NCBI GenBank assembly: GCA_043754515.1
Contig: JAYUUO010000172.1
Coordinates: forward strand, 1 to 11,135
DNA length: 11,135 bases
Source: Armatimonadota bacterium
GTDB taxonomy: Bacteria; Armatimonadota; Armatimonadia; Armatimonadales; Armatimonadaceae
Reading direction: 5' to 3'
Positions 1 through 10,981 of this stretch are shown here, piece by piece. The stretch's first letter is position 1; each line of letters opens with the position of its first letter. The position numbers and the translations under genes are program-made. The notes beneath the pieces were generated by a model. It saw only the letters and a list, made by a program, of their open reading frames with translations, was not told the DNA's origin and made no database searches.

Positions 1-55
1 CGAAGTATTCCCGCTCAAGATCGCGTTCCGCCTGTTGCAGTGGGGTTATTTTCAT
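1..55 (-). CDS. 5' part of hypothetical protein (runs off window)
   Basis: ATG at 55-53 overlaps the TGA of the preceding gene (ATGA coupling); reads MKITPLQQAERDLEREYF, open to window edge. Confidence 0.55.
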   Translation of the reverse strand, partial: MKITPLQQAERDLEREYF

Positions 56-291
56 ATCCCAACACCTTTCAGCCCGAGGTTGTAGCCTATGAGGAACACT
101 ACGCCGAGCGCGGCAATCAGGAGCAGCACCATGACCACCCGGTTCATATCTCGCCCCATGCGTGCTTGGTCGCGGCACTCGTAGCAAACAGCGGTCACGC
201 GGATTTCAGCGAGGCCCGTTTCGCACTCAGAGCAACAGGTGTTGAACCCGTCGCGGGTAAGCGGGCCGATTTGGTGAAAAGTCGTGTTCAT
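52..291 (-). CDS. small Cys-rich protein with C-terminal transmembrane helix
   Basis: ATGA overlap at 288-291 with upstream gene; CSEC...CYEC pairs; hydrophobic VVMVLLLIAALGVVFLIGY. Confidence 0.65.
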   Translation of the reverse strand: MNTTFHQIGPLTRDGFNTCCSECETGLAEIRVTAVCYECRDQARMGRDMNRVVMVLLLIAALGVVFLIGYNLGLKGVGI

Positions 292-581
292 GGTACGTCG
301 TACCAGTTGCAAACAGGCATGCATCCCGCCGTATCAGGCATGAGCGCGTTCCAACACTCGTATCGGAGCAGGTAGCCGCGCAGTTCGCCGCAGTTGTACA
401 TATTCGCGACCACCGGCCCACCGCATTTCGGGCAGGTGCCACGCAATCGGTGGTGTTCTTCTGATGGGATGCGCTCCCCAGCGCGGGACGGGATGATGCC
501 AAAGCAAAGAGCGTTGCCGGGTCTGTCTATGACTCGTCGCGCTACGTCGGGTAGCACGGGTAATCGGAATCTGTTTAACAT
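288..581 (-). CDS. hypothetical zinc-ribbon protein
   Basis: GGAGA SD about 10 nt upstream; CPKCG...ECW...C motifs; first gene after the leftward promoter. Confidence 0.65.
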   Translation of the reverse strand: MLNRFRLPVLPDVARRVIDRPGNALCFGIIPSRAGERIPSEEHHRLRGTCPKCGGPVVANMYNCGELRGYLLRYECWNALMPDTAGCMPVCNWYDVP

Positions 582-626
582 GGGTTCTAGTCTCCGTTGA
601 TGCGGCTATCTCGACCGCACAAAAAC

Positions 627-655
627 AGTGTACCCCGATACTTGCCTTTAGTCAA
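627..655 (-). promoter_or_regulatory. sigma70-like leftward promoter
   Basis: minus strand TTGACT (655-650), 17 nt spacer, TACACT (632-627). Confidence 0.65.
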
Positions 656-670
656 TAACTAAGGTATACT
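642..670 (+). promoter_or_regulatory. sigma70-like rightward promoter overlapping a putative operator
   Basis: TTGCCT (642-647), 17 nt spacer, TATACT (665-670); TTGCCTTTAGTCAATA (642-657) is identical to 5214-5229. Confidence 0.7.
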
Positions 671-696
671 ATTTTTGTACGAGGGGGAATACAACG

Positions 697-1359
697 ATGA
701 TGACTACCGACCCGCCGCGAATTAGACGGCCCAGAGAAACCGCCCGAAGCGGTTTTTCCGCATACACGATACTGGAGCAAGAGGCGCGAGCCGCGAAAGC
801 CGCCGCGACATCGAAGGCGCGTGGGGCGACCCTCTGGTTCGACGGCTACACGATGACGCCGACCAACCGGTGGGCAATCTACATCGTGACCACACCGGAG
901 CGAATTGATAAGCACACGGGGGAGTTCTACGTCACGGACTACACAGTGGACGTGATGGGGCAAACGTGTAACTGCGATGACTTCATGCATCACGGCTTTA
1001 ACCGAGTGTGCAAGCACCTTACCGGGGCGGATAACGCTGTCGTCGCCGCGCACGCGGCGGTTGAGGCGGCGCGTGTGTTGTTGACGCCGCGCGAGGATGC
1101 CCAGCCGGTCACGCCGCGCCCGATGCCGAAGATGCCGCTTCCCTACGAGGATCGCGGCGCGACTCGGCGAAACTCTGACAAGTGCCGCACTTGCAGAAAC
1201 GCCGCGGTTCCTGATGCTCTGACAAACGCCGCGGTTCCTGATGCTCGGCGAACAGCGGCTGTTCCCGATGCCAGGTGGAACCCCAACATGTTGCCGGAGG
1301 CTACGCTCTCCGCTATGAGCCGCGCGGGAGTATTGAACCGCGCCGCCGACTTCGATTGA
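697..1359 (+). CDS. SWIM zinc-finger protein with repeat-derived C-terminal tail
   Basis: YTVD...TCNCDDF...CKHL fits SWIM CxC-xn-CxH; GAGGGGG SD. Confidence 0.8.
   Translation: MMTTDPPRIRRPRETARSGFSAYTILEQEARAAKAAATSKARGATLWFDGYTMTPTNRWAIYIVTTPERIDKHTGEFYVTDYTVDVMGQTCNCDDFMHHGFNRVCKHLTGADNAVVAAHAAVEAARVLLTPREDAQPVTPRPMPKMPLPYEDRGATRRNSDKCRTCRNAAVPDALTNAAVPDARRTAAVPDARWNPNMLPEATLSAMSRAGVLNRAADFD
1163..1271. repeat. palindrome cluster 1 (4 cores AA-NN-GCSGC-NN-TT)
   Basis: cores at 1180, 1197, 1224, 1251 (27-bp period for the last three); encodes NAAVPDA repeats. Confidence 0.9.
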
Positions 1360-1366
1360 ATCAGAG

Positions 1367-1384
1367 CAACCGCCGAGGCGGTTG
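1367..1384 (+). terminator. intergenic hairpin (weak terminator or attenuator)
   Basis: CAACCGC-CGAG-GCGGTTG followed by TCTT. Confidence 0.4.
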
Positions 1385-1403
1385 TCTTGAAAGGAACAAA
1401 ACG

Positions 1404-1820
1404 ATGAATGAAAACCAACAGACCGGGTATGCGCAACTAACAGAGGATATGCACACCTCCTATGCCGCCATGATGGAGATTACGACGCGTGCGTGTGAGC
1501 AGATGGAGGCGGTAATAGGTCGCCGCCGCGAACTAATCGAGGCACGAGATGCAGTCCTCCTGACGTACCAGAACGATCAGAAGTCCATGGGGGCGAACGA
1601 GGCGACACGTGACGCGTTTCTGCGCCGTGAAACAGCGACCGAGCGGGAGAGGCTGGAGGCAGAGGAGGCAATTCTGCGTCAGTCGGAAAACACGCTGAAA
1701 CTAGCGTCCCTTACCGTCGAACGCTTGCGGGTTGGCTTGCGCATCCTCGAAGCATCCACAAGCAAAGGCCACCTTGATTTCGCGGTAGCCAGCGCGGGTA
1801 GGAGGGGCGGAAATGAGTAG
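1404..1820 (+). CDS. hypothetical coiled-coil protein
   Basis: AAGGA SD before ATG 1404; helical E/R/A-rich sequence. Confidence 0.75.
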   Translation: MNENQQTGYAQLTEDMHTSYAAMMEITTRACEQMEAVIGRRRELIEARDAVLLTYQNDQKSMGANEATRDAFLRRETATERERLEAEEAILRQSENTLKLASLTVERLRVGLRILEASTSKGHLDFAVASAGRRGGNE

Positions 1821-2118
1821 AACCAACCGCATACGCAGGGCACTGCGCCTGTACCGTGCCACGCGCCGCGCCGCGCTGGTCGCACTGGTGCCTGTACTGC
1901 TTTTCGGCGACGGAGCGACCACCCCCACGCTAATTGCGCTATCGTCCCTGTTCCTGCTTGCCGCGTGCCTCCACGCGGCGGCGGGGGCATGGCTTGCAGA
2001 AGCGCGGTCGGCGACATGGGGAGAGCCTACAGAGGCATCGTCACAGTACGCCGGTTGCCTAAGAATCCGCGCGGTAAGGTCTGACAACCGTTTTCCGTTT
2101 TCGCAGTCGGTCAATTAG
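1813..2118 (+). CDS. hypothetical membrane protein (two hydrophobic segments)
   Basis: AGGAGG SD; overlaps previous stop; AALVALVPVLLF and LIALSSLFLLAACL segments. Confidence 0.65.
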   Translation: MSRTNRIRRALRLYRATRRAALVALVPVLLFGDGATTPTLIALSSLFLLAACLHAAAGAWLAEARSATWGEPTEASSQYAGCLRIRAVRSDNRFPFSQSVN

Positions 2119-2142
2119 TACCAAGAGAGGGGTCAGTATACA

Positions 2143-2355
2143 ATGAAAATTAACCAGGTTACGGTTTGCTACGAGGAAAAGCGTAGCATCAACTATCAAA
2201 CGGTAGGGTTCAGTGCGTCGGTGACCGCGACGCTCGAAGATGGCGAGACAGTTAGCGGGGCTATCGCCAAACTCAAGGCGGGGCTGGTCAAGGTGGTCAC
2301 CGAGACGACAAGGGAGGAAGTCAACCGGCTGGCGGAAGAGACGCCGCGCCGCTAA
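2143..2355 (+). CDS. small hypothetical phage protein
   Basis: GAGGGG SD; 70 aa, beta-beta-helix-like pattern. Confidence 0.75.
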   Translation: MKINQVTVCYEEKRSINYQTVGFSASVTATLEDGETVSGAIAKLKAGLVKVVTETTREEVNRLAEETPRR

Positions 2356-2392
2356 ATGACGCGCCTGTATTGTTAGCCCTCCTGGATGATCC

Positions 2393-2416
2393 GGGGGGGC
2401 TTTGTCATTCCCCCCC
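2393..2416. terminator. hairpin between convergent genes, possible terminator
   Basis: G7-CTTTGTCATT-C7, followed by TCGCTATTTT. Confidence 0.45.
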
Positions 2417-2431
2417 TCGCTATTTTGACGG

Positions 2432-4156
2432 CTACGGGGGCCACGTCGCGAGGCATAGACGTAACAGGGGTACAGCGGTAGGCACGGCAGTTAAACTGGT
2501 GCGCACAGAAGCCGCATCGGTGGGCGCAGGGCGCGTGGTAATTGACGTCGGGTAGGGCTTGCCGGTCGGGGGGGCGGGGAAACGGAAGTAGACCCGCGCG
2601 GTCGCCTCCCTCTCCGTCCTCCCTGACGCGAACACGCGCCCCGTCTCCCGCGTAGTAACTTCGACGCGGGAGACCAGTAGTTCGATCAGTTCCCGCTTCG
2701 CGCCGCGCGTCATCGCGCTGATTCTACCGAGGTACTGCCCTGCTATGTCGCGCACGGCCCGCCCCGCATCCACCGCAACCGCCTCACCCTCGCGCTCCAG
2801 TTCGGCGGCGGCATCAAGCCGCGCGATCTCCGAGTCGAGTACCGTCGTTTCCGCCGCGATGTCGGCGAACTGCGCGGCGCGGTCACGCTCCCCGATTAAC
2901 CCTTGCCGGAAAATTTTGAGTACCGCCTGACGCTCGGCCTCCTTGCGCTCGCGGGCGGCGACTAGTCGGGCGCGTTCCGTACCCCGCTCATTACCGGTTG
3001 CGCCGTTCATGGGCGGCGCGACAGCCCTTGTCGCCTTTTCTATCGTCTCCGGCGCGGCGAGCCATACGAGAACTTCACCCCACACGAAATCTTCTATATC
3101 CCCGCTGACCGCTTTCGGGTTGCCGGGGCACGGGCTGCCGCTCGCCTGGCGGTGGCACCGATACGACGTACCACCGCCGGTGTTGTCAGATAGTTTCCCC
3201 TCCGAGCCTTTGCAGACGTAGCCGGTGTAAGTGCCGCCGCAATGGAAACATGTAATCAGTCCGCGTAGCAGGTAGTCCCGCGCCGATTCAGGGCGGGAGA
3301 ATCGCCGGTTAGCGACGAGCCGATCCGCCGCGCGTTGCCACGTATCGGCGTCCACGAGGGCGGCGCACGGCGTTTCGATGCCCCGGAGGTTTGATCGTGC
3401 GTTGCCCGCGCCGCGCTCCTGGACGCCCCTGTACACAACGCGCCGAATGAGGCGGACGATATGCTCATTCGCCCACACAGAGCCGCGCCCGGTGCTGGTA
3501 GGCAGTCCTATCGCTGTAAGGTGCCGAGCAACGCCGGTAGCGGTTTGCACGCCGCCCGCGACCTGCGCGTATATCCATCGCACAATATGCGCGCGGGTCA
3601 TGCCGCCGAACGTCGGTTCGGGCGTCTCGTCGGGGGCGAGCCTCGCCTCCGCGCCGCGCCCCTCCACTACGTAGCCGTAAGGCGGTACCACGCCGCCGAG
3701 CCACCCGCCCGCCGTAGCCTTTTTGCGCCGCCCTTCGTCCGCCCGTTCGCGGATAGCGTTGCGCTCGAATCCTGCGAACGACGCCAGTATGTCAAGCATG
3801 AGCCGCCCGCTCGCCGTGTTCGTGTCGAACGCCTCTGTCATGGACACGAGCCGTACTCCGCGCCCCTCCAGCGTTTTAACTGCGTTCAGAGCGACGCCGG
3901 TATCACGGGCTAGCCGGTCAAGCCGGAAGAGGGCTACCTGCTCGAACTGCCCGCCCCCAGCGCCGGCGAGGAGCCTAGCGCCGGCGGGTCGGTCGTGGAC
4001 GGGCACGACGCCGGAAACGCCTTCATCTATGTATTCGCCCGCGCTGGTATGCCCGTGCAGCTCGCACCACCGACGAAAGAAATCAACTTGAACGCCGACA
4101 GTTCCGCGTTCGGCCTGGTCGTCAGTGCTGACGCGGGCGTAGAGCGCGACGTTCAT
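2432..4156 (-). CDS. large serine recombinase (integrase)
   Basis: N-terminal YARVST catalytic Ser, DEGVSG, RLDRLAR, FERNAIRER; recombinase domain; Zn ribbon LLRGLITCFHCG...YRC...C; coiled coil. Confidence 0.95.
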   Translation of the reverse strand: MNVALYARVSTDDQAERGTVGVQVDFFRRWCELHGHTSAGEYIDEGVSGVVPVHDRPAGARLLAGAGGGQFEQVALFRLDRLARDTGVALNAVKTLEGRGVRLVSMTEAFDTNTASGRLMLDILASFAGFERNAIRERADEGRRKKATAGGWLGGVVPPYGYVVEGRGAEARLAPDETPEPTFGGMTRAHIVRWIYAQVAGGVQTATGVARHLTAIGLPTSTGRGSVWANEHIVRLIRRVVYRGVQERGAGNARSNLRGIETPCAALVDADTWQRAADRLVANRRFSRPESARDYLLRGLITCFHCGGTYTGYVCKGSEGKLSDNTGGGTSYRCHRQASGSPCPGNPKAVSGDIEDFVWGEVLVWLAAPETIEKATRAVAPPMNGATGNERGTERARLVAARERKEAERQAVLKIFRQGLIGERDRAAQFADIAAETTVLDSEIARLDAAAELEREGEAVAVDAGRAVRDIAGQYLGRISAMTRGAKRELIELLVSRVEVTTRETGRVFASGRTEREATARVYFRFPAPPTGKPYPTSITTRPAPTDAASVRTSLTAVPTAVPLLRLCLATWPP

Positions 4157-4289
4157 TGTTTTATTTTCGTGCTACACGCGTTCAATGGTGATTCATTCAT
4201 TCGTTATCTTCATTACCGGCACGGTTCTTGCAAGCATACTGATACGCGTCCGCCGATAACAAATTGTTTTAGTTAGGTAGGTGGGCTAG

Positions 4290-4318
4290 GTTATACTGAA
4301 TTGGCGAATATCTGACAA
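4290..4318 (-). promoter_or_regulatory. putative integrase promoter
   Basis: minus strand TTGTCA (4318-4313), 17 nt spacer, TATAAC (4295-4290). Confidence 0.5.
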
Positions 4319-4333
4319 GCGCGGCGTTTGTCA
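4311..4333. repeat. palindrome cluster 2 (single intergenic core)
   Basis: TCTGACAA-GCGCGGCGT-TTGTCA. Confidence 0.85.
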
Positions 4334-4500
4334 TGTGTTCGTCGCATCGCTTTATGAAAACCGTATTGTTACCTGTTTTTTGCCCGTTCGACTGCCCCGC
4401 TATGGCGGTATGTAACCGCGAAATCGGGTGTAACTCTCCCGCGATACTGCCGCTCCCTCCAAGTGATCCGCGCGTGGGTATTGCAGTGTGGGATGCTGGT

Positions 4501-5166
4501 CTACGCCGGGTTGTCCTTCACGTTCGCGCTGGACGCGCTAGGCGAGATGCCGGGGTCATCTGTGCCGCGATCCGCCGCCGGGCGCGTCACGCGGCGCGGG
4601 TGCCGCCTGGCGATGGGGTTATCTAACTGGTCACGCGCGTCGGCAATGATTATCTGCCCTGGTGCGAGAATACCCCCGTCCCGTGATCTGTCTGATTCGG
4701 ATTCGAGAAGGGCGTGGGCTACGCCGAGTGTCGCGGCTCTGGACGGTTCGCGCATCCCCTCGAATAGGTCAAGCAGTTGCAGGCTCATGCCCGATATTAC
4801 CCGCTCCTCGCCGTCGCGAGTGCTGACTGGTTGCGACGCGGGGGTGTAACCGCACGCCTTGAGTACGCCTTCTACGTCGCCAAATACCTGCCCGATTGCA
4901 AGCGCGAGTTCGTACCCCGGTCGCTGGTTGGTGGCATATACGGCAGGGTTGCCGCGCACCAATTTGTATATATACGTTTCCTTCACGTCAACGCCGCGTT
5001 CGCGTAACTCTTCGCGTAAGTCCTGGTATGTGGCGGGCCATTTGCCATCAGCCGCTCGCGCGTCGAGTAGCGGTTTGATCCACTTCTGAAAGTCTGTCCG
5101 CGCCGTCCACCCACGCCGCCGCTTATCATCGGTTACTGGTGCTACGAGTTTCTCACGAGTTATCAT
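4501..5166 (-). CDS. XRE-family HTH repressor (CI-like)
   Basis: TYQDLREEL...VKETYIYKLVRG...RPGYELALAIGQVF...LKACGY pattern; divergent from the Cro-like gene and upstream of the integrase. Confidence 0.75.
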   Translation of the reverse strand: MITREKLVAPVTDDKRRRGWTARTDFQKWIKPLLDARAADGKWPATYQDLREELRERGVDVKETYIYKLVRGNPAVYATNQRPGYELALAIGQVFGDVEGVLKACGYTPASQPVSTRDGEERVISGMSLQLLDLFEGMREPSRAATLGVAHALLESESDRSRDGGILAPGQIIIADARDQLDNPIARRHPRRVTRPAADRGTDDPGISPSASSANVKDNPA

Positions 5167-5211
5167 ATTCGCCCCGTTTCGTTCCCCCCCTATTGTTTAT
5201 TCGCGGGGGGG

Positions 5212-5229
5212 TATTGCCTTTAGTCAATA
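5212..5229. promoter_or_regulatory. putative repressor operator
   Basis: imperfect palindrome TATTG-CCTTTAGT-CAATA; copy at 642-657; variant ATTGACTAAGGGTATA at 5282-5297. Confidence 0.6.
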
Positions 5230-5282
5230 GTGCGCCTAACAAAGTTGCACAAAAGCAGTGTGAATAATATCTCTTCAAGTCA

Positions 5283-5311
5283 TTGACTAAGGGTATACAA
5301 TTTGGTACAAT
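5283..5311 (+). promoter_or_regulatory. strong early promoter (PR-like)
   Basis: TTGACT, 17 nt spacer, TACAAT with extended TG at 5303-5304. Confidence 0.8.
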
Positions 5312-5317
5312 CTATCT

Positions 5318-5551
5318 ATGCCCAAACGTGCCCTATTATCCGACGCCGCGATTGCCGCTTTGCGCGACAAGCAAAGCAATATTGAGGACGGCAAGTATAT
5401 TACACAGGTGGCTATCGCGGCGGAACTTCATATCACTGCGAGTATGCTATGCCGGATGCTATCGCGCACGCGCGGTATCGGTGTTGGTCTCGCGTCGCGC
5501 CTGTCTCAATACTGCGCCCTGCCTGTATCGGATGTTTTTTTATCCGATTAG
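5318..5551 (+). CDS. Cro-like XRE HTH protein
   Basis: ITQVAIAAELHITASMLCRMLSRTR helix-turn-helix; 77 aa; position opposite the CI-like gene. Confidence 0.85.
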   Translation: MPKRALLSDAAIAALRDKQSNIEDGKYITQVAIAAELHITASMLCRMLSRTRGIGVGLASRLSQYCALPVSDVFLSD

Positions 5552-5572
5552 ATGCCTTGAGTTAATACCCGC

Positions 5573-5839
5573 ATGAAACCATCTAAACCCACCCTACCCT
5601 ACGTGGCAGTGTACACGTCCGAGAGCGACCAAACGGACGATGACCGCCGGATGACTGCCCGCGCCCTCGTGATCCTCGGCGAACAGCGGCTGTTCCCGAT
5701 CACCGGCGAATCGCGGCGATTCTCTGACAAACGCGGCGTTTACAGATTCCCGATCCTCGGCGAATCTCTGACAAGTGCCGCACTTGCAGAACAGCGGCGA
5801 TTCCCGATTCTTCGGGATGGAGGCGAACATGGCCGATGA
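5573..5839 (+). CDS. hypothetical protein, largely repeat-derived
   Basis: fills the gap between the Cro-like gene and the next gene and overlaps the next start; over half is palindrome cluster 3. Confidence 0.5.
   Translation: MKPSKPTLPYVAVYTSESDQTDDDRRMTARALVILGEQRLFPITGESRRFSDKRGVYRFPILGESLTSAALAEQRRFPILRDGGEHGR
5671..5816. repeat. palindrome cluster 3 (5 cores)
   Basis: cores at 5682, 5709, 5729, 5773, 5790 with linkers CCCGATCACCGGCG, CTCTGAC, GCAG. Confidence 0.9.
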
Positions 5840-6713
5840 CGCTTCGGTATATCCCGCGTTGGATGGGGAAGGCGGCGAACACGCTACTGACTCGTTCGAG
5901 TCTCGATTTGTGGATTTATCGCCCTCTGACGCGGTGGATTACGCCCGCGCAAAGTTGAGCATTCGCGCCAACCTTGCCGGGGCGTTACTCGTCGGCGATG
6001 CGCTACTACGCATTCGAGATAACAAGTGGTACCGCGCCGACGGGTACGCAACCTTTGAATCGTTCTGTCGCGCGGAGTATGACATGAGCCGCGCCCGCGC
6101 CTACGAACTACTCAAAGCGGCAGAGGTCATAGACAATTTGTCTGCAATTGCAGACTTTTCGGCTGATGACGGCCCTTTCATTCCCATGAACGAGGCGCAG
6201 ATACGGCCTCTAACGCGCCTTGATGCGTGCGACCAGCCGGTGGCACTAGTGGCGGCGGCAAGGGCGGCAGAGGTCGAGGGCGTTCGCCTTGTAAGCCGTC
6301 ATGTGGAGGCGGCAGTACGCGAGATAGAGGCTGCCAAACACCCCGCCCCATTCATTCCCCCGATGCTCGGAGAATCTGCAAACGCCGCGTTTGTCAGAGA
6401 ACAGCCGCTGTTCCCGATGTTCGGAGAATCTGCAAACGCCGCGTTTGTCAGAGAACCAGTATTCGTATGGCGCGAGATATATCTGCTCGTGCTCCATTAC
6501 CGTGATGGCAACGGCGAGCGGACGCTACGCGCCGAGATTGAGACGGTACATGCAGGTAACGCTCTCCGCTACACGGCCTCCATCGGTGGGGAGCACCAGT
6601 CAACGCACATAACCCGCGCCGAAGCGGTTAGGTGGGTAGAGGAGCGATTCCGCGCCTCCGCTGGTCTCCTGCCGACCACCACGACCACCCCGCTAGGAGG
6701 TGTCAAACCGTGA
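5829..6713 (+). CDS. DUF3102-like phage HTH DNA-binding protein
   Basis: GGAGG SD, ATG 5829; VGDALLRIRDNKWYRADGYATFESFCRAEYDMSRARAYELLKAA...NEAQIRPL signature. Confidence 0.75.
   Translation: MADDASVYPALDGEGGEHATDSFESRFVDLSPSDAVDYARAKLSIRANLAGALLVGDALLRIRDNKWYRADGYATFESFCRAEYDMSRARAYELLKAAEVIDNLSAIADFSADDGPFIPMNEAQIRPLTRLDACDQPVALVAAARAAEVEGVRLVSRHVEAAVREIEAAKHPAPFIPPMLGESANAAFVREQPLFPMFGESANAAFVREPVFVWREIYLLVLHYRDGNGERTLRAEIETVHAGNALRYTASIGGEHQSTHITRAEAVRWVEERFRASAGLLPTTTTTPLGGVKP
6359..6456. repeat. palindrome cluster 4 (54-bp tandem, 3 cores)
   Basis: cores at 6380, 6400, 6434; PM(L/F)GESANAAFVRE twice. Confidence 0.9.
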
Positions 6714-7207
6714 GTGTATACGTATCTACCATCGTCTGGCAGTACAGCGAGGCGAAACTATCGAACCGCCTACTGATGCTCGCAATCGCCGACTTCGCCG
6801 ATGATCGGGGAGGCAACGCGTACCCCTCCGTCGCCACGCTCGTGGCGAAAACAAAAACGAGCGAACGCCAGGTACGCACGGGGTTGCGCGAACTCGAAGC
6901 GGCGGGGGAACTGGCGGTATCAGTCGGCACTGGCCCGCACGGGTGCAATGAGTACCGCGTACTACTCGCCGAACGCTACTCCTTGCAACCAAAACAATCC
7001 AACAAAAGAATAGTAGCAGATGATTCATCCGAACAGGCGAGATCGGAACAATATTCCCCCCTGAATAACGCCCCCCCCCCCTGCATGATATGCCCCCTGC
7101 ACAATATTCCCCCCTGCATATTGTGCCGTTACCCCTGCATATTGTGCCCCCCCCCCCTGCATATTGTGCCGTTACCCCCTGCACAATATGCCCCCAATCC
7201 GTCATAG
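6710..7207 (+). CDS. replisome organizer / replication initiator N-terminal winged HTH (HTH_36-like)
   Basis: AGGAGG SD, GTGA overlap; RLLMLAIADFADD...AYPSVATLVAKTKTSERQVRTGLRELEAAG...NEYRV. Confidence 0.85.
   Translation: MSVYVSTIVWQYSEAKLSNRLLMLAIADFADDRGGNAYPSVATLVAKTKTSERQVRTGLRELEAAGELAVSVGTGPHGCNEYRVLLAERYSLQPKQSNKRIVADDSSEQARSEQYSPLNNAPPPCMICPLHNIPPCILCRYPCILCPPPLHIVPLPPAQYAPNPS
7046..7195. repeat. iteron-like repeats, putative replication origin
   Basis: CCCCTGCATATTGTGCC at 7111, 7132, 7154; CCCCTGCACAATAT at 7094, 7176; inside the initiator gene as in lambdoid origins. Confidence 0.7.
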
Positions 7208-7770
7208 ATCCACCAACAGATACGTCAGTGATACATCAGTGTGTAGGCGTACCGCCTTCAACGCAACACATTCAGCCAGTGGATTATGTTGATGACCCGT
7301 ACGCCGAAGCCGTCTTGATAGATCCACACGCCGCGACTCCTCCCCCCAAGTCTAAAACCAAACCGGCGACAAAATCACCTGATGACGCCGAGTGGATCGC
7401 GGGACTTCACACCGATGCGGCGTATGCCGGGCTGGACATTGAGCGCGAAACAGCCAAGTGCCGCCGCTGGTGCGACACGAAGCGCATCGTAGTGACCAGG
7501 GCGCGAATAGTCTCATGGCTCAACCGCGCCGACGTGCCTATAGCCGCCGTGAGCGCGGCATTCTCCCAACCGCCCGATTACCTGCCGCGCCGCCAACACT
7601 CGGAGAATCGCGGCGATTCCCGATACACCCCCGGCCCGACACTGGAAGAACTTGCGCAACGCAACGAACAGAGGCGGCGCGATCTATCCGATAGCCGCCA
7701 CGATTACGGATTGCCCGACATACTCACGCTGGATACGAGCCGGAACCGAATAGGAGCAAGCGACCAATGA
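7090..7770 (+). CDS. C-terminal part of replisome organizer (probable frameshifted continuation)
   Basis: Pro/Lys linker then LDIERETAKCRRWC...RIVSWLNRAD; no SD; ATGA-coupled to the next gene. Confidence 0.65.
   Translation: MPPAQYSPLHIVPLPLHIVPPPPAYCAVTPCTICPQSVIDPPTDTSVIHQCVGVPPSTQHIQPVDYVDDPYAEAVLIDPHAATPPPKSKTKPATKSPDDAEWIAGLHTDAAYAGLDIERETAKCRRWCDTKRIVVTRARIVSWLNRADVPIAAVSAAFSQPPDYLPRRQHSENRGDSRYTPGPTLEELAQRNEQRRRDLSDSRHDYGLPDILTLDTSRNRIGASDQ
7599..7624. repeat. palindrome cluster 5 (single core)
   Basis: CTCGGAG-AATCGCGGCGATT-CCCGAT. Confidence 0.85.
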
Positions 7771-8618
7771 CACAAACAATGATGACACGTCCGACAAATA
7801 AAAACGAACAGATTCCCCGCCCCGCCTTGTCGGTCGTGGGCGAATGCCTCGGGATGCTGGAGGCCATGAACGCCGGGAATAACCAGTCGTTTGACGCTCT
7901 GTGGCGGATATACAACACGCTCCTTTCGGCGTGGGGGGATGACCTGTCCATGCGGGTATGCACCCACGCCGTGCTCACCTGCAAGTGGCGACCGGCACCC
8001 GCCAAATTGCGCGAGATCGCCGCCCGGCTCGAATCACCGACACCGAACGCCGACGCCGCGCTGACCGAGGTTCAAACGCTGATTCGCCGGTTCGGGTCAA
8101 ACGCTATGAGGCATCCCGAAAGGCCGAGCGTGCGCGTCATGGGGGAGCCTGATTTCTCCCATCCGCTCGTCGAGTCGGCTGTCCGGCGCATCGGCGGATG
8201 GGCGCGAATCTGCGCGGGGGAGGCGCAGTACCAGGAGGGCGGATTTGAAGGGGCGTTCCGCGCGGTGTATGACCGAGCAGAAACCGACTTCCTGGAGCAG
8301 GTGTCGGTTGCGCTACAGCAGGGTGTACGCCCCGCCGAACTATTCCCACGCTACGCGGTGTTCGCCGAGGAAAAGCGCGGTGATTATTCCGAATCTCGAT
8401 TAGTGCAATCGAAAACCGCGCCGCCTCTGTTTCCATCCGAACGGCTGACGCCGATGCCCGCGAAACTGCGCGATATGATCGCCCGGTTCGGCAAGCGTAC
8501 CGAGGTGCCCGCGTTTGTCAGAGAACCGCGGCAGTTTGCCGAGCATCTGCAAGTGCCGCACTTGTCAGAGCGCGGTCACCTCGGTACGCTTGCCGACAAA
8601 GGAGCCGCCGAATGCTAG
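7767..8618 (+). CDS. helicase loader/inhibitor-like protein (G39P-N / DUF6475-like)
   Basis: follows the initiator; KWRPAPAKLREIA...FSHPLVESAVRRIGGWARIC...AFRAVY. Confidence 0.65.
   Translation: MTQTMMTRPTNKNEQIPRPALSVVGECLGMLEAMNAGNNQSFDALWRIYNTLLSAWGDDLSMRVCTHAVLTCKWRPAPAKLREIAARLESPTPNADAALTEVQTLIRRFGSNAMRHPERPSVRVMGEPDFSHPLVESAVRRIGGWARICAGEAQYQEGGFEGAFRAVYDRAETDFLEQVSVALQQGVRPAELFPRYAVFAEEKRGDYSESRLVQSKTAPPLFPSERLTPMPAKLRDMIARFGKRTEVPAFVREPRQFAEHLQVPHLSERGHLGTLADKGAAEC
8509..8570. repeat. palindrome cluster 6 (2 cores plus half site, mostly inverted orientation)
   Basis: cores at 8524 and 8551; TCTGCAA-GTGCCGCAC-TTGTCAGA at 8546-8569. Confidence 0.9.
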
Positions 8619-9022
8619 AGCATACTGACCCGCTGACCCGCTTCGCCGCGATGATATCGAAAGCCCGCGCGAACGCCCTGCCGAAGATCGCCAGGTTTAC
8701 ACTCTCTGACCTGTGTATGGGGCATGTGGTAGACGACGCCAACGCGGGGGTGTCCGGCGCGGCGGGCGTGCTGGAATCGTGCCCTAACGCCGACCTACGC
8801 GCCCGCGCCGCCCAGACCCTGATCGAGATAGCCGCCGCCTACCGCGAGGCGAGGGCAGGAGTTGCCGCATCTATCGCTCCTACCCCCACCCAGCCAGGCA
8901 CTACCACCGCCGCGCCGGAAATATACACGGGCAACCGGTCAAAGGCGTTAAACGCAATCCGGGGGCTACCCGGCTACCAGTTACCCAAGCCGTCCGAACC
9001 GATAGAGGGAGGGTTATTTTAA
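8612..9022 (+). CDS. hypothetical protein
   Basis: AAGGAG SD; overlaps both neighbours. Confidence 0.7.
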   Translation: MLEHTDPLTRFAAMISKARANALPKIARFTLSDLCMGHVVDDANAGVSGAAGVLESCPNADLRARAAQTLIEIAAAYREARAGVAASIAPTPTQPGTTTAAPEIYTGNRSKALNAIRGLPGYQLPKPSEPIEGGLF

Positions 9023-9630
9023 TGCCACGCGATCAGCAGGTAATACCAGGAATGACAGCGAGCGAGCCGCCAAAAACGAAGCAGGGCGGAATACCGGCGG
9101 CACAAAGACGGCGGCGCATCGAGCAGTATGAGCAGGTGGAACTATTCCGATTCCTATCGAAATTTGAGTCGCGATACCCCCACATGAAACTGATCTACTC
9201 GTCCGGAAACGGCATATTTATGGGGTACGACGCGGGAGCGAAGAGACGCGCCGCGACCGAGGTACAGGCGGGACTCCGCGCCGGAGTCTGGGATATATTC
9301 GTCCCATGCCCCCGACTCGTGTCGCCGGGACTGACTGCGCACGGCATGTACCTTGAAATGAAAACGGGAATAGGCAAACTCTCGCTTGACCAGGAGTATT
9401 TCGGTGCGGCGATGAAGCGTGCTGGATATGTCTGCGTCGTGGCGCGGTCGTGGCACGAAGCCGCCCGCGCCATTCTCGAATACCTTGCTGATTGCCCCGC
9501 CGCTATGAAGGCACTTCCCGATGCTCTGACAAGTGCCGCACTTGCAGATGCTCGGAGAATCTGCAAACGCCGCGTTTGTCAGAGAACAGCCGCTGTTCCC
9601 GACGCAACGCAGGGAAAGAAGGTCGCTTGA
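9022..9630 (+). CDS. VRR-NUC domain nuclease (Holliday-junction-resolvase-like)
   Basis: E-x-x-E-Q, GNG, GLRAGVWDI, HGMYLEMK, KLSLDQ, GYVCVVARS motifs. Confidence 0.85.
   Translation: MPRDQQVIPGMTASEPPKTKQGGIPAAQRRRRIEQYEQVELFRFLSKFESRYPHMKLIYSSGNGIFMGYDAGAKRRAATEVQAGLRAGVWDIFVPCPRLVSPGLTAHGMYLEMKTGIGKLSLDQEYFGAAMKRAGYVCVVARSWHEAARAILEYLADCPAAMKALPDALTSAALADARRICKRRVCQRTAAVPDATQGKKVA
9515..9602. repeat. palindrome cluster 7 (3 cores)
   Basis: cores at 9531, 9565, 9585; 9547-9602 is identical to 6362-6417. Confidence 0.9.
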
Positions 9631-10661
9631 TGAAACCACCTTTCCCTTACTTCGGTGGAAAACGAAACGTCGCTGGCGTCGTGTGGGAGCGGCTCGGTCT
9701 CGATGCCGACGTGTACACCGAACCGTTTGCCGGGTCACTCGCCGTGCTACTCGCCCGACCCGGTGGCGCGGCAAGGTGGGAAACAGTGAACGACATTGAC
9801 GGGTGCCTCACGAACTTCTGGCGGGCAGTGCGTGCCGATCCTGATCAGGTCGCGAAGATCGCCGATTATCCCGTATCGGAAATTGATCTGCACGCTCGCC
9901 ACGCGTACTTGATTCGTGGGAGAGCCGACCTTACGGAAAAACTTATCGCCGACCCACACTATTACGACGTGGAACGAGCGGCGTGGTGGGTATGGGGTGC
10001 GTGTTTATGGCTAGGTGGCGGATGGTGCGCGGATTCGTCCATGTGCGTCAATCAGGAGGGGAGTAAAAAGCAAATACCGCAGATTAACCAGAACAATGGT
10101 GTCGGTTTAGCCATGCGAGAAGCCCCGGAAACGCGGAGGCAAATACCAGCCCTAAACCAGAACGCACAAACAGGCATAAATACCCGTTCGGTCTGTACTA
10201 CATCGGGCGGTGTGTTGCGCTGGTTCAACGAACTTGCGGATCGGCTCCGGCACGTTCGGATATGTTGCGGCGATTTTGCGCGTGTACTAACCCCAACAGT
10301 CACCGAGAATATGGGCGGGTCCGGCGTCACTGCCGTTTTCCTTGATCCTCCGTACTGCCAGGCGACCGCTGGCCGAAACAATAATCTCTATGCTATGGAG
10401 ACCGAATCATCTACACCCGCGCGGGAGTGGGCGATAGCGCATGGCGACGACCACCGGTACCGAATCGCTATTTGTGGCTACGATGGCGAGCATGACATGC
10501 CAGACGGCTGGGATTGCTACGAATGGACGGCACGCGGCGGCTATGGGAACGCTGGCAAGGGCGCGACTATCGCCAAAGCGAACAGGAAACGAGAACGAAT
10601 CTGGTTCAGTCCGCATTGCCTGAAGCCACGCCAGTCAAGTTTGTTCGGGGCCGACGGGTAA
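9630..10661 (+). CDS. DNA adenine methyltransferase (D12/Dam-like)
   Basis: PFPYFGGK, YTEPFAGSLAV, VNDID, FLDPPY motifs; TGATG overlap at 9628-9632. Confidence 0.92.
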   Translation: MKPPFPYFGGKRNVAGVVWERLGLDADVYTEPFAGSLAVLLARPGGAARWETVNDIDGCLTNFWRAVRADPDQVAKIADYPVSEIDLHARHAYLIRGRADLTEKLIADPHYYDVERAAWWVWGACLWLGGGWCADSSMCVNQEGSKKQIPQINQNNGVGLAMREAPETRRQIPALNQNAQTGINTRSVCTTSGGVLRWFNELADRLRHVRICCGDFARVLTPTVTENMGGSGVTAVFLDPPYCQATAGRNNNLYAMETESSTPAREWAIAHGDDHRYRIAICGYDGEHDMPDGWDCYEWTARGGYGNAGKGATIAKANRKRERIWFSPHCLKPRQSSLFGADG

Positions 10662-10729
10662 GCCGATCAGTCTCTGATATTGTTCACGATTTGGGGAGAG
10701 ACGGTGACACGCGCTCGGGTTATTGTCCT

Positions 10730-10758: not shown

Positions 10759-10819
10759 AGCGCGGTCTGCGGGCAGACGTTCGACGGAACGGGAGTAGGT
10801 TCGATCCCTACACGCGCTA
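10759..10819 (+). ncRNA. tRNA-like element with truncated D and anticodon arms
   Basis: acceptor AGCGCG/CGCGCT; canonical T-arm GTAGG-TTCGATC-CCTAC; two short hairpins replace the D and anticodon arms. Confidence 0.55.
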
Positions 10820-10837
10820 TTTGGTACCAACACGAAC

Positions 10838-10981
10838 ATGAACACCACACCAGATAAAACTACACCGAGACGGGGGGATTCTCACCGATCACCCACATGT
10901 GTGGATTTGTTTTCCGGCATTGGCGGATTTTCACTCTCGGCGGCTATCGAGTTTCTGCAAAACCGGGGGGCGAGCGCATGA
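10838..10981 (+). pseudogene. truncated DNA cytosine-5 methyltransferase remnant (47 aa)
   Basis: manual translation contains VDLFSGIGGFSLSA (C5-MTase motif I) and then stops. Confidence 0.65.

Follow-up and report, generated by a model that had tools for sequence, protein, structure and literature searches.

Short hairpin palindromes in temperate phage DNA as a probable family of ultra-small mobile elements

Palindromes of the window and their anatomy

The stretch of DNA analysed here (the window, 11,135 bases) is the entire contig C172 of an Armatimonadota assembly of 5,132,157 bases in 313 contigs, and it carries a dispersed set of short palindromes. An earlier note on this DNA had described 19 copies of a 13-bp core in seven clusters, with a 27-bp spacing and a small set of linkers, and a search of the window with the pattern AANNGCSGCNNTT recovered all 19 positions exactly, together with the clusters, the spacing and the linker strings. 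In 200 dinucleotide-preserving shuffles of the window the core was matched 0.15 times on average and three times at most, with none of the 200 reaching 19, so that the hand estimate of about 0.1 chance matches per window was right. I consider it likely that these palindromes form a family of very small mobile DNA elements, non-autonomous and resident in a group of temperate phages.

Elements were found in the frames of a SWIM-finger protein, a ParB-like protein, proteins of 226 and 283 amino acids (aa) and a VRR-NUC-type nuclease, and in an 88-aa frame at 5573-5839. The statement that six of the seven clusters lie inside coding sequences holds only if this 88-aa frame is counted as a gene; element sequence fills more than half of it, and cluster 3 may therefore be intergenic.

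Each 13-bp core is the middle of a 24-nucleotide (nt) palindrome with one bulged base. Two subtypes of 24 nt occur in the window, T2 (TCGG-N-R-AA-NN-GCSGC-NN-TT-Y-CCGA) and T3 (TCTG-A-C-AA-NN-GCSGC-NN-TT-G-CAGA), while a third of 21 nt, T1, with TCGG...CCGA ends and a GAAAC/GTTTC inner stem, was seen only in metagenomic relatives. The three are one hairpin-forming palindrome, to which the single bulged base gives polarity, and T3 copies were found both forward and reverse, as the earlier note had said of its motif modules. The predicted single-stranded fold is the same for T2 and T3, namely 4 bp, the bulged base, 6 bp and a CSG triloop, with energies of -6.7 to -7.5 kcal/mol and z = -2.3 to -3.9 (-6.7 kcal/mol and z = -3.9 for the T3 at 1174..1197), and whole clusters reach z = -4.1 to -4.3. 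What had been taken for a linker vocabulary (CTCTGAC/GTCAGAG, TCTGC/GCAGA and CCCGATGCTCGG) turned out to be the outer stems of the elements plus duplicated triplets.

The 5-nt arms were perfectly complementary in 14 of the 19 cores. Nineteen copies, 16 of them distinct, were aligned, the T3 copies being chosen by their flanks and by at least five of six core pairs; standard pairs occupied 159 of 160 cells, with changes on both sides at four of the ten pairs (3-22, 6-20, 9-17 and 10-16); when the partners were slid by 1-3 columns, pairing fell to 21-48% of cells. Every one of the 19 aligned copies has TC(G/T)G at its start and C(C/A)GA at its end. The cores come in at least five variants within one genome, and their two arms always co-vary.

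The elements of the window, and one empty target site, are as follows:

1164..1214 (1164-1173 and 1201-1214), plus strand: T2 interrupted by a T3; excision of the T3 with AAC leaves a 24-nt T2-type palindrome
1174..1197, plus strand: T3, 24 nt; duplicated triplet AAC at 1171-1173 and 1198-1200
1218..1241, plus strand: hybrid with the left end of T3 and the body and right end of T2; TGC spacers at 1215-1217 and 1242-1244
1245..1268, plus strand: intact T2 with TGC on both flanks
4311..4334, plus strand: solitary T3-like variant with a symmetric TGAC...GTCA end, without a flanking repeat
5676..5699, plus strand: intact T2; flanks TCC/TCA agree at two of three positions
5703..5753, plus strand: T2 with a T3 (5723-5746) in its right arm; duplicated TTC; excision in silico restores a 24-nt T2-type palindrome
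5757..5807, plus strand: T2 with a T3 (5767-5790) in its left arm; flanks ATC/ACA imperfect; excision restores a perfect T2
6367..6417, plus strand: T2 interrupted by a reverse T3 (6375-6398); duplicated GAA
6421..6455, plus strand: composite of the left 8 nt of a T2, a reverse T3 (6429-6452) and GAA; right part of the T2 missing
7600..7623, plus strand: solitary intact T2 in the 226-aa frame; flanks CAC/TAC agree at two of three positions
8509..8542: remnants in decay, with a reverse T3 reduced to its right half beside a T2-like palindrome that is degenerate
8546..8569, minus strand: intact reverse T3; flanks GCA/GCG agree at two of three positions
9379..9384, plus strand: empty target site, CTC then TCG, in the VRR-NUC gene; filled in the relative L031
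9525..9548, plus strand: T3; duplicated TGC at 9522-9524 and 9549-9551
9552..9602, plus strand: T2 interrupted by a reverse T3 (9560-9583); duplicated GAA

The T2 restored at 1164..1214 is imperfect, with one core pair and one outer pair mismatched, and the hybrid beside it differs from this restored T2 at three left-end positions only. The element at 4311..4334 is intergenic, between a 221-aa gene and the integrase gene. A seemingly chimeric core at 5790 is the junction of a T3 and a T2, and 6421..6455 is a truncated or partly duplicated composite. In the nuclease gene, the T3 at 9525..9548 lies between native sequence resembling the right end of T2 and the T2 that begins at 9552, and 9552..9602 together with 9525-9551 adds 27 codons to the tail of the protein.

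Flanking triplets, nested copies and empty sites

Of 22 T3 copies, taken from the window, from other contigs and from relatives, 15 had a perfect 3-nt direct repeat on their flanks, which amounts to 13 of 20 distinct contexts, and at several of the remaining copies the flanking triplets agreed at two of three positions. Controls in which one triplet was slid by 1-2 nt, or both were shifted outward by 3-9 nt, left 0-2 matches, and flanking repeats of at least 4 nt were almost never seen (1, 0, 0). Once T3 copies had been removed in silico, 10 of 23 T1 and T2 copies also showed a 3-nt repeat. The triplets vary by site (AAC, TTC/GAA, TGC, CTC, CCC, CAC, CGC, TCC, GGG) and are therefore duplicated target rather than element sequence. 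The 27-bp period follows from a unit of a 24-nt element plus its 3-nt duplication, the T1 unit is 21 + 3 = 24 nt, and all units are whole numbers of codons. Terminal inverted repeats, in the form of the two arms, and a 3-nt target-site duplication, both required of a MITE (a miniature transposable element with inverted repeats), are present.

Five T3 copies are nested in T2 copies or their remnants (1174, 5723, 5767, 6375 and 9560), and the T3 at 6429 sits in a truncated T2. Deleting the T3 together with one triplet restored the 24-nt T2 palindrome at 5723, 5767, 6375 and 9560, and did so imperfectly at 1174. Among the relatives, L055 has a T3 within the loop of a T1, and L044/L056 have one in the CCC spacer that separates two T1 copies. 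Of 19 distinct T3 contexts, 8 have GA before the duplicated triplet and 10 have TC after it, against a background of about 6% each, and the native insertion site of L031 carries both dinucleotides. The elements themselves begin with TC and end with GA, so each insertion recreates GA-NNN-TC on both sides.

The comparison with relatives that the earlier note had proposed yielded two orthologous pairs of filled and empty DNA sites. The metagenomic contig L031 aligns with window 9323-9510 at 72% identity over 215 columns, and within the body of its VRR-NUC gene it bears a clean insertion of 27 nt, consisting of a T3 and a second CTC, where the window has only CTC-TCG at 9379-9384. In L044, a 24-nt insertion (T1 plus triplet) is absent from contig C69 of the assembly, with flanks 76% identical. 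At the protein level, 11 aligned VRR-NUC homologues have 0, 17 (P0010) or 31 (P0011) extra residues after MKTxxxK, and L031, which lies outside this alignment, has nine. P0013 carries five tandem identical 8-residue units after KKIE, and the nearest homologue, P0004 (79% identity), is without the 27-residue tail that cluster 7 adds in the window. Homologues without the insert thus display in-frame insertion, the feature expected of Rickettsia palindromic elements.

T2 and T3 are translated in all three phases and in both orientations across six frames of the window, giving unrelated peptides, and a stop codon occurs in only one of the 12 possible frames of the two subtypes. An event that adds 27 nt (24 nt for T1) never shifts the reading frame, and since 11 of 12 frames are free of stops, copies survive inside genes as extra peptide loops, for the most part in linkers and in C-terminal tails that follow the recognisable domains, the tails being the main location. 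In the VRR-NUC protein, for example, the PHROG match extends to residue 164, and cluster 7 begins at 168.

Phage setting and distribution

Enrichment depended on the form of the motif. Over the whole assembly the loose 13-mer gave 166 matches against 161 for its reversed control and was not enriched, whereas a 24-nt skeleton, which fixes the invariant positions only and does not require pairing, gave 24 matches against none for the reversed control, 18 of them with all four variable pairs complementary. These 18 intact elements all lie on six contigs that make up 86,508 of the 5,132,157 bases (1.7%). The T2 pattern occurred at 11 places in the assembly and at none in 40 relatives of the same genus, family and order, with controls at zero. 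Among the element-bearing contigs, C138 has, downstream of its type I-E cas operon, a HigB-like toxin along with domains of the VRR-NUC and DUF5131 families, C284 encodes a serine recombinase, and C69 has no recognisable genes. Contig C225 (L019) carries, at 7184-8032, a gene for a 227-aa collagen-like (G-X-Y) protein of tail-fibre type. Inverted repeats some 60 nt long flank the gene, and each consists of two T2 copies and a further shared stretch; these T2 doublets lie in the two intergenic gaps around the gene. The layout is reminiscent of invertible tail-fibre segments.

A metagenome scan gave 38 loci, 10 of which were treated as relatives (L028, L031, L039, L040, L044 and L053-L057). Four others (L032, L046, L052 and L059) had cores that were not palindromic, and in the remaining 24, some of them from gut metagenomes, the motif was counted and they were then set aside. 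Protein searches of viral contigs with the ParB-like and VRR-NUC proteins gave no close relatives. The T2 and T3 patterns gave nothing above chance in the reference genome set or in viral contigs: T3 had no match in IMG/VR viral contigs, as an exact 24-mer or in degenerate form, and three single matches, the chance level, in a set of 185,579 species genomes, while eight T2 matches in viral contigs were discarded as unrelated, none having complementary variable positions.

Many perfect AA..GCSGC..TT palindromes with other outer stems, such as GGAA...TTCC and CGACA...TGTCG, were seen on C138 (11-36 kb), C143, C87, C272 and C284, mostly as single copies on mobile-looking DNA. Over all boundary offsets they gave no single flanking-repeat peak; they may be older or sister families, and I do not claim them for the same mobile family. 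An identical stretch of about 48 nt at or near the ends of C37, C80, C94, C244 and C310 holds a 14-nt palindrome (TCTGCA-AC-TGCAGA) and is probably the end of an unassembled insertion sequence.

The genes and the spacer targets of the window are the following, the further genes being small and of unassigned function:

2432-4156, minus strand: large serine integrase
5829-6713: ParB-like 294-aa protein, with a precomputed match to the plasmid-partition family PF01672
About 6712-7207: O-like replication initiator with HTH_36
9022-9630: VRR-NUC-type nuclease
9630-10661: Dam-class methyltransferase
4515-4550, 4661-4697 and 8319-8355, also pieces ending at 2051 and spanning 4602-4640: matches to CRISPR spacers and window pieces joined to the CRISPR repeat

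The integrase, the O-like initiator, the VRR-NUC nuclease and the Dam methylase of the window, together with the major capsid protein, CHAP domain and PAPS reductase domain encoded by metagenomic relatives, place the elements on phage DNA. Of 104 spacers taken from the CRISPR arrays of the assembly, four matched the window, three of them at 100%, and all came from a 71-repeat array on contig C61; no protospacer lies inside an element cluster. The window represents a temperate phage's early region, and the spacer matches make it a phage, or some other mobile element, encountered by the host lineage. Contigs from public runs join pieces of the window directly to the CRISPR repeat of the C61 array; the phage is a current target of the host lineage, and the contig may derive from phage DNA that was binned with the host, not from a prophage in its chromosome. 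A complete type I-E cas operon (Cas1, Cas3, Cse1, Cse2, Cas7, Cas5 and Cas6e) lies on C138 at 1-9707 and a 20-repeat array with a 61-nt period on C143 at 133-1293, and at least two further array types are present (C61/C77/C302 and C112). Mimicry of a CRISPR repeat was dismissed, as the three repeat types of the assembly showed, by eye, no similarity to T2 or T3.

Several other features of the window were seen alongside. About six copies of a C-rich unit of about 21 nt, spaced 21-22 nt apart, occupy 7048-7200 at the 3' end of the O-like initiator frame; the unit reads CCCCCTGCA, then an AT-rich stretch, then GCC, and the repeats are likely an iteron-type replication origin. The motif GCCTTTAGTCAATA is common to two promoter regions, 640-690 upstream of the SWIM gene and 5215-5300, the divergent region between the 221-aa gene and a small helix-turn-helix gene, and is followed after a few bases by AAGGTATAC at 660-668 or AGGGTATAC at 5289-5297. 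These shared motifs look like repressor operators, as which they likely serve, and the mobile palindromes are absent from both regions. The 3' end of the integrase frame (2472-2569) shares 81% DNA identity with the last 98 bases of contig C245, and 85% identity over 33 residues, and could mark the attachment region, with the end of a host gene duplicated there.

Contigs from four public runs of one study covered clusters 1, 2, 5 and 6 without any difference and broke at clusters 3, 4 and 7. The agreement of these independent contigs at four clusters makes an assembly artefact, which the earlier note had named as a possible refutation and would have checked in raw reads, unlikely. In all four runs, contigs also join 9521 to 10675 with 76 other letters in between, which represents a related genome without the Dam methylase gene, the left breakpoint being the base before cluster 7. 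Three other joints (293 to 5708, 7621 to 10700 and 10765 to 10978) were dropped as rearrangements, their sides being only 27-30 letters long; the first two stop within or next to an element and resemble further copies of it.

Movement, rival explanations and known systems

The earlier note had suggested looking for a RAYT or HUH nuclease, and the search was negative for RAYT. Four weak matches to PF01797 (Y1_Tnp) were found in the assembly, which is 92.7% complete and so may lack a gene of this kind (two on C279, one each on C71 and C244), none of them flanked by T2 or T3, and the palindromes near these matches are unrelated to either. Eight DDE or rve loci of the assembly had no T2- or T3-like termini, a weak test given that metagenome-assembled genomes often lose insertion sequences. 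An all-against-all comparison of the open reading frames (ORFs) of element-bearing contigs gave no shared candidate enzyme, and Pfam scans of the metagenomic relatives gave no candidate enzyme.

These negative searches for a Y1 or DDE enzyme weigh against mobility, and so do several other points. At 24 bp, the duplex offers too little length for two transposon ends to synapse as they usually do. Just two orthologous filled and empty DNA pairs could be aligned, and their empty sites could in principle be precise excisions, as short direct repeats favour loss by replication slippage. The contigs of the four public runs contain no insertions or deletions, and contigs cannot reveal insertion polymorphism. 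The target preference is confounded by neighbouring elements, some of the counted copies are not independent (L028/L053/L054, L044/L056 and the composites 6375, 6429 and 9560), and part of the T3 pairing arises by construction, since selection required at least five of six core pairs.

Insertion duplicates 3 nt of the target, and each event adds 27 nt, or 24 nt for T1; the cuts would be staggered by 3 nt, as the length of the duplication implies. The preferred target looks like GA-NNN-TC, the sequence that arises where one element abuts another. Two fresh targets would thus result from every insertion, and this would lead to 27-nt tandem arrays with identical spacers and to the nesting of T3 in T2. 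A hairpin, a cruciform or a dyad recognised by a dimer is suggested by the strict co-variation of the arms and the conservation of the bulge and the CSG centre. Since the usual synapsis is out of reach for a duplex of 24 bp, the likelier route seems to be a hairpin intermediate of single-stranded DNA, or a dimer that makes cuts on either side of its site. I take the elements to be selfish.

A wider proposal joins these observations, and I regard it as doubtful: the palindromes would be the smallest self-propagating transposable elements yet seen in a virus, moved by an enzyme other than a known transposase, with arrays that exchange gene modules. On this proposal, they would be 24-nt hairpins whose insertion regenerates their own target, GA-NNN-TC, and the mover could be a structure-specific nuclease of the phage, for example VRR-NUC, whose gene is the hottest target. 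The arrays would mark and promote the exchange of modules between related phages; this idea comes from the variant contig in which everything is replaced between the very start of cluster 7 and a point shortly beyond the methylase gene, and from the C225 doublets that bracket the collagen-like gene.

Three explanations without mobility were weighed. That the palindromes are centromere-like or silencing sites bound by the product of the ParB-like gene, kept for function in the manner of parS sites or KorB operators, is improbable. The largest clusters lie just upstream of and inside that gene, its 294-aa product has the precomputed PF01672 match, and parS sites inside coding regions are known. 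The KorB operator, TTTAGC(C/G)GCTAAA in the part of PMC2680271 available, is likewise a dispersed 13-bp palindrome of odd length, its central base unpaired and its centre GCSGC, but this centre is all that the two share in that text, the outer bases being TT/AA in the operator and AA/TT here. Moreover, a Pfam scan at E <= 0.01 gave no match for the ParB-like protein, its sequence led to no relative in the PDB, only one distant homologue of it was found, and elements occur on other phage contigs where no homologue was found. Sites that come and go as 24- or 27-nt insertions with target duplications, T2 copies split by T3 copies, and at least five core variants in one genome do not resemble such a set of binding sites; the variable positions keep their dyad symmetry, which a protein ignoring them would not impose. 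The earlier note's alternative of a protein-binding code, of the stoperator or parS kind, is left unsupported by the same insertion origin, co-varying variants and mutual interruption, and also by the two orientations and the absence from the two promoter regions of the window. Binding is nevertheless compatible with mobility, since whichever enzyme moves the elements must bind them.

Selection for hairpins that act in RNA, as stabilisers, RNase processing sites or attenuators at cistron ends of the early operon, is quite improbable. It would fit the position of most copies in the last tenth to quarter of a frame or between genes, the T2 doublets in both gaps around the collagen-like gene of C225, and the stable predicted folds of the clusters, and repetitive extragenic palindromic sequences (REPs) are reported to act in this way in the available text of PMC3733652. 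Against it stand the two orientations within one direction of transcription, which put the bulge on opposite sides of the RNA stem, one cluster in the middle of a gene (6367-6455) and nested insertions that destroy the outer hairpin, and it leaves the target duplications unexplained. Growth of the arrays without any transposition, by replication slippage, unequal recombination or template switching via microhomologies, is highly improbable as the whole explanation. It would account for tandem units with identical spacers (TGC in cluster 1, TTC/GAA in C225, CCC in L044), the 54-nt partial duplication at 6367-6455, the hybrid at 1218-1241 and the five identical repeats of P0013, but solitary copies sit at unrelated native sites with differing triplets (CTC, CCC, CAC, TCC), the L031 insertion lies in the body of an enzyme gene far from other copies, and slippage cannot seed a first copy. 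Slippage very probably adds to the growth of arrays on top of insertion.

If the palindromes are indeed mobile elements, a single 24-nt hairpin suffices for a transposable element, and a length of element plus duplication that is divisible by three allows spread through densely coded viral genomes with little harm. They would supply phage proteins with varied peptide loops and with hot spots of recombination, and would be a warning for annotation, as tails of phage ORFs and so-called repeat proteins may be parasitic DNA. They also pose a tractable question of enzymology, namely which enzyme cuts 3 nt apart and pastes a hairpin, and should interest the fields of mobile DNA and phage genome evolution. 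The elements are among the smallest jumping elements seen and, as far as I found, are undescribed in phages; a literature search of open-access papers and preprints gave no account of such elements in phage genomes. A preprint on VIPR (10.64898/2026.10.15.759431), which in the part available concerns GGYNN repeat RNAs, was set aside as unrelated.

Among known systems, mycobacteriophage stoperators are asymmetric 13-bp sites in one orientation relative to transcription and mostly between genes, whereas the sites here are palindromic, in both orientations and mostly inside frames; KorB operators and parS sites differ in that the sites here are insertions, vary in sequence and interrupt one another. 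Insertion sequences of the IS30/IS3 type make target duplications of 2-4 bp, prefer palindromic hot spots and insertion next to their own ends, and have abutted ends that are highly reactive when separated by 2-3 bp. They are kilobase elements that encode a DDE transposase, however, and none with matching ends was found in the assembly. The elements resemble MITEs in being non-autonomous, in having two inverted arms as ends, in duplicating the target and in inserting into one another. Bacterial MITEs are given as 70-300 bp long with terminal repeats of 15-30 bp in the accessible part of PMC3733652, while here the two ends abut and form the whole element, and no parent insertion sequence was found in the assembly.

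The second alternative of the earlier note, elements that colonise genes in the manner of REPs, bacterial interspersed mosaic elements or Rickettsia palindromic elements, agrees with the 24-nt palindromes, the 3-nt duplications, the nesting and tandem arrays, the empty sites and the translation in several frames. As far as the available text goes, REPs are short imperfect hairpin palindromes of 20-40 nt, with several families per genome, often paired or clustered, and some are translated as parts of ORFs, where clusters of them account for 43-82 residues (Di Nocera et al. 2013, PMC3733652). The elements here are likewise short hairpin palindromes of several subtypes, clustered and partly translated inside ORFs, and fit in size and fold. 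A REP family is expected in many copies and mainly outside genes, whereas most copies of the window are inside frames and the 18 intact copies of the assembly are a low number. No GTAG or CGTC tag occurs in any of the 19 aligned copies, no RAYT gene is flanked by elements, and the elements are on phage DNA while REPs are chromosomal; a clear 3-nt target duplication is seen here, and the word duplication is absent from PMC3733652. The behaviour is therefore REP-like but, with the negative RAYT search, outside the RAYT-REP family.

Rickettsia palindromic elements are described, in the same portion of PMC3733652, as selfish palindromic DNA lying in frame in functional genes and read through as peptide. 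The likeness is close, as the palindromes here are also in frame in functional genes and translated as extra peptide. Those elements are about 100-150 bp long and lie on the chromosome of an obligate intracellular bacterium, whereas these are of 21-24 nt, are found in phages, and nest and form tandems via their own ends. The GC42 clusters of yeast mitochondria are 42-nt hairpins with an AG duplication and constrained stems, present singly or in tandem (Wu and Hao 2015, PMC4478555, in its available part). They share with the phage elements a very small hairpin, a very short target duplication, single copies along with tandem arrays and, within that text, the lack of a known dedicated enzyme; they differ in being 42 nt long, in an AT-rich organelle and with a fixed 2-nt target, against 24 nt, a GC-rich phage and a variable 3-nt target here. 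To judge from those accessible portions, GC clusters are the closest behavioural match, above intragenic REPs and Rickettsia palindromic elements.

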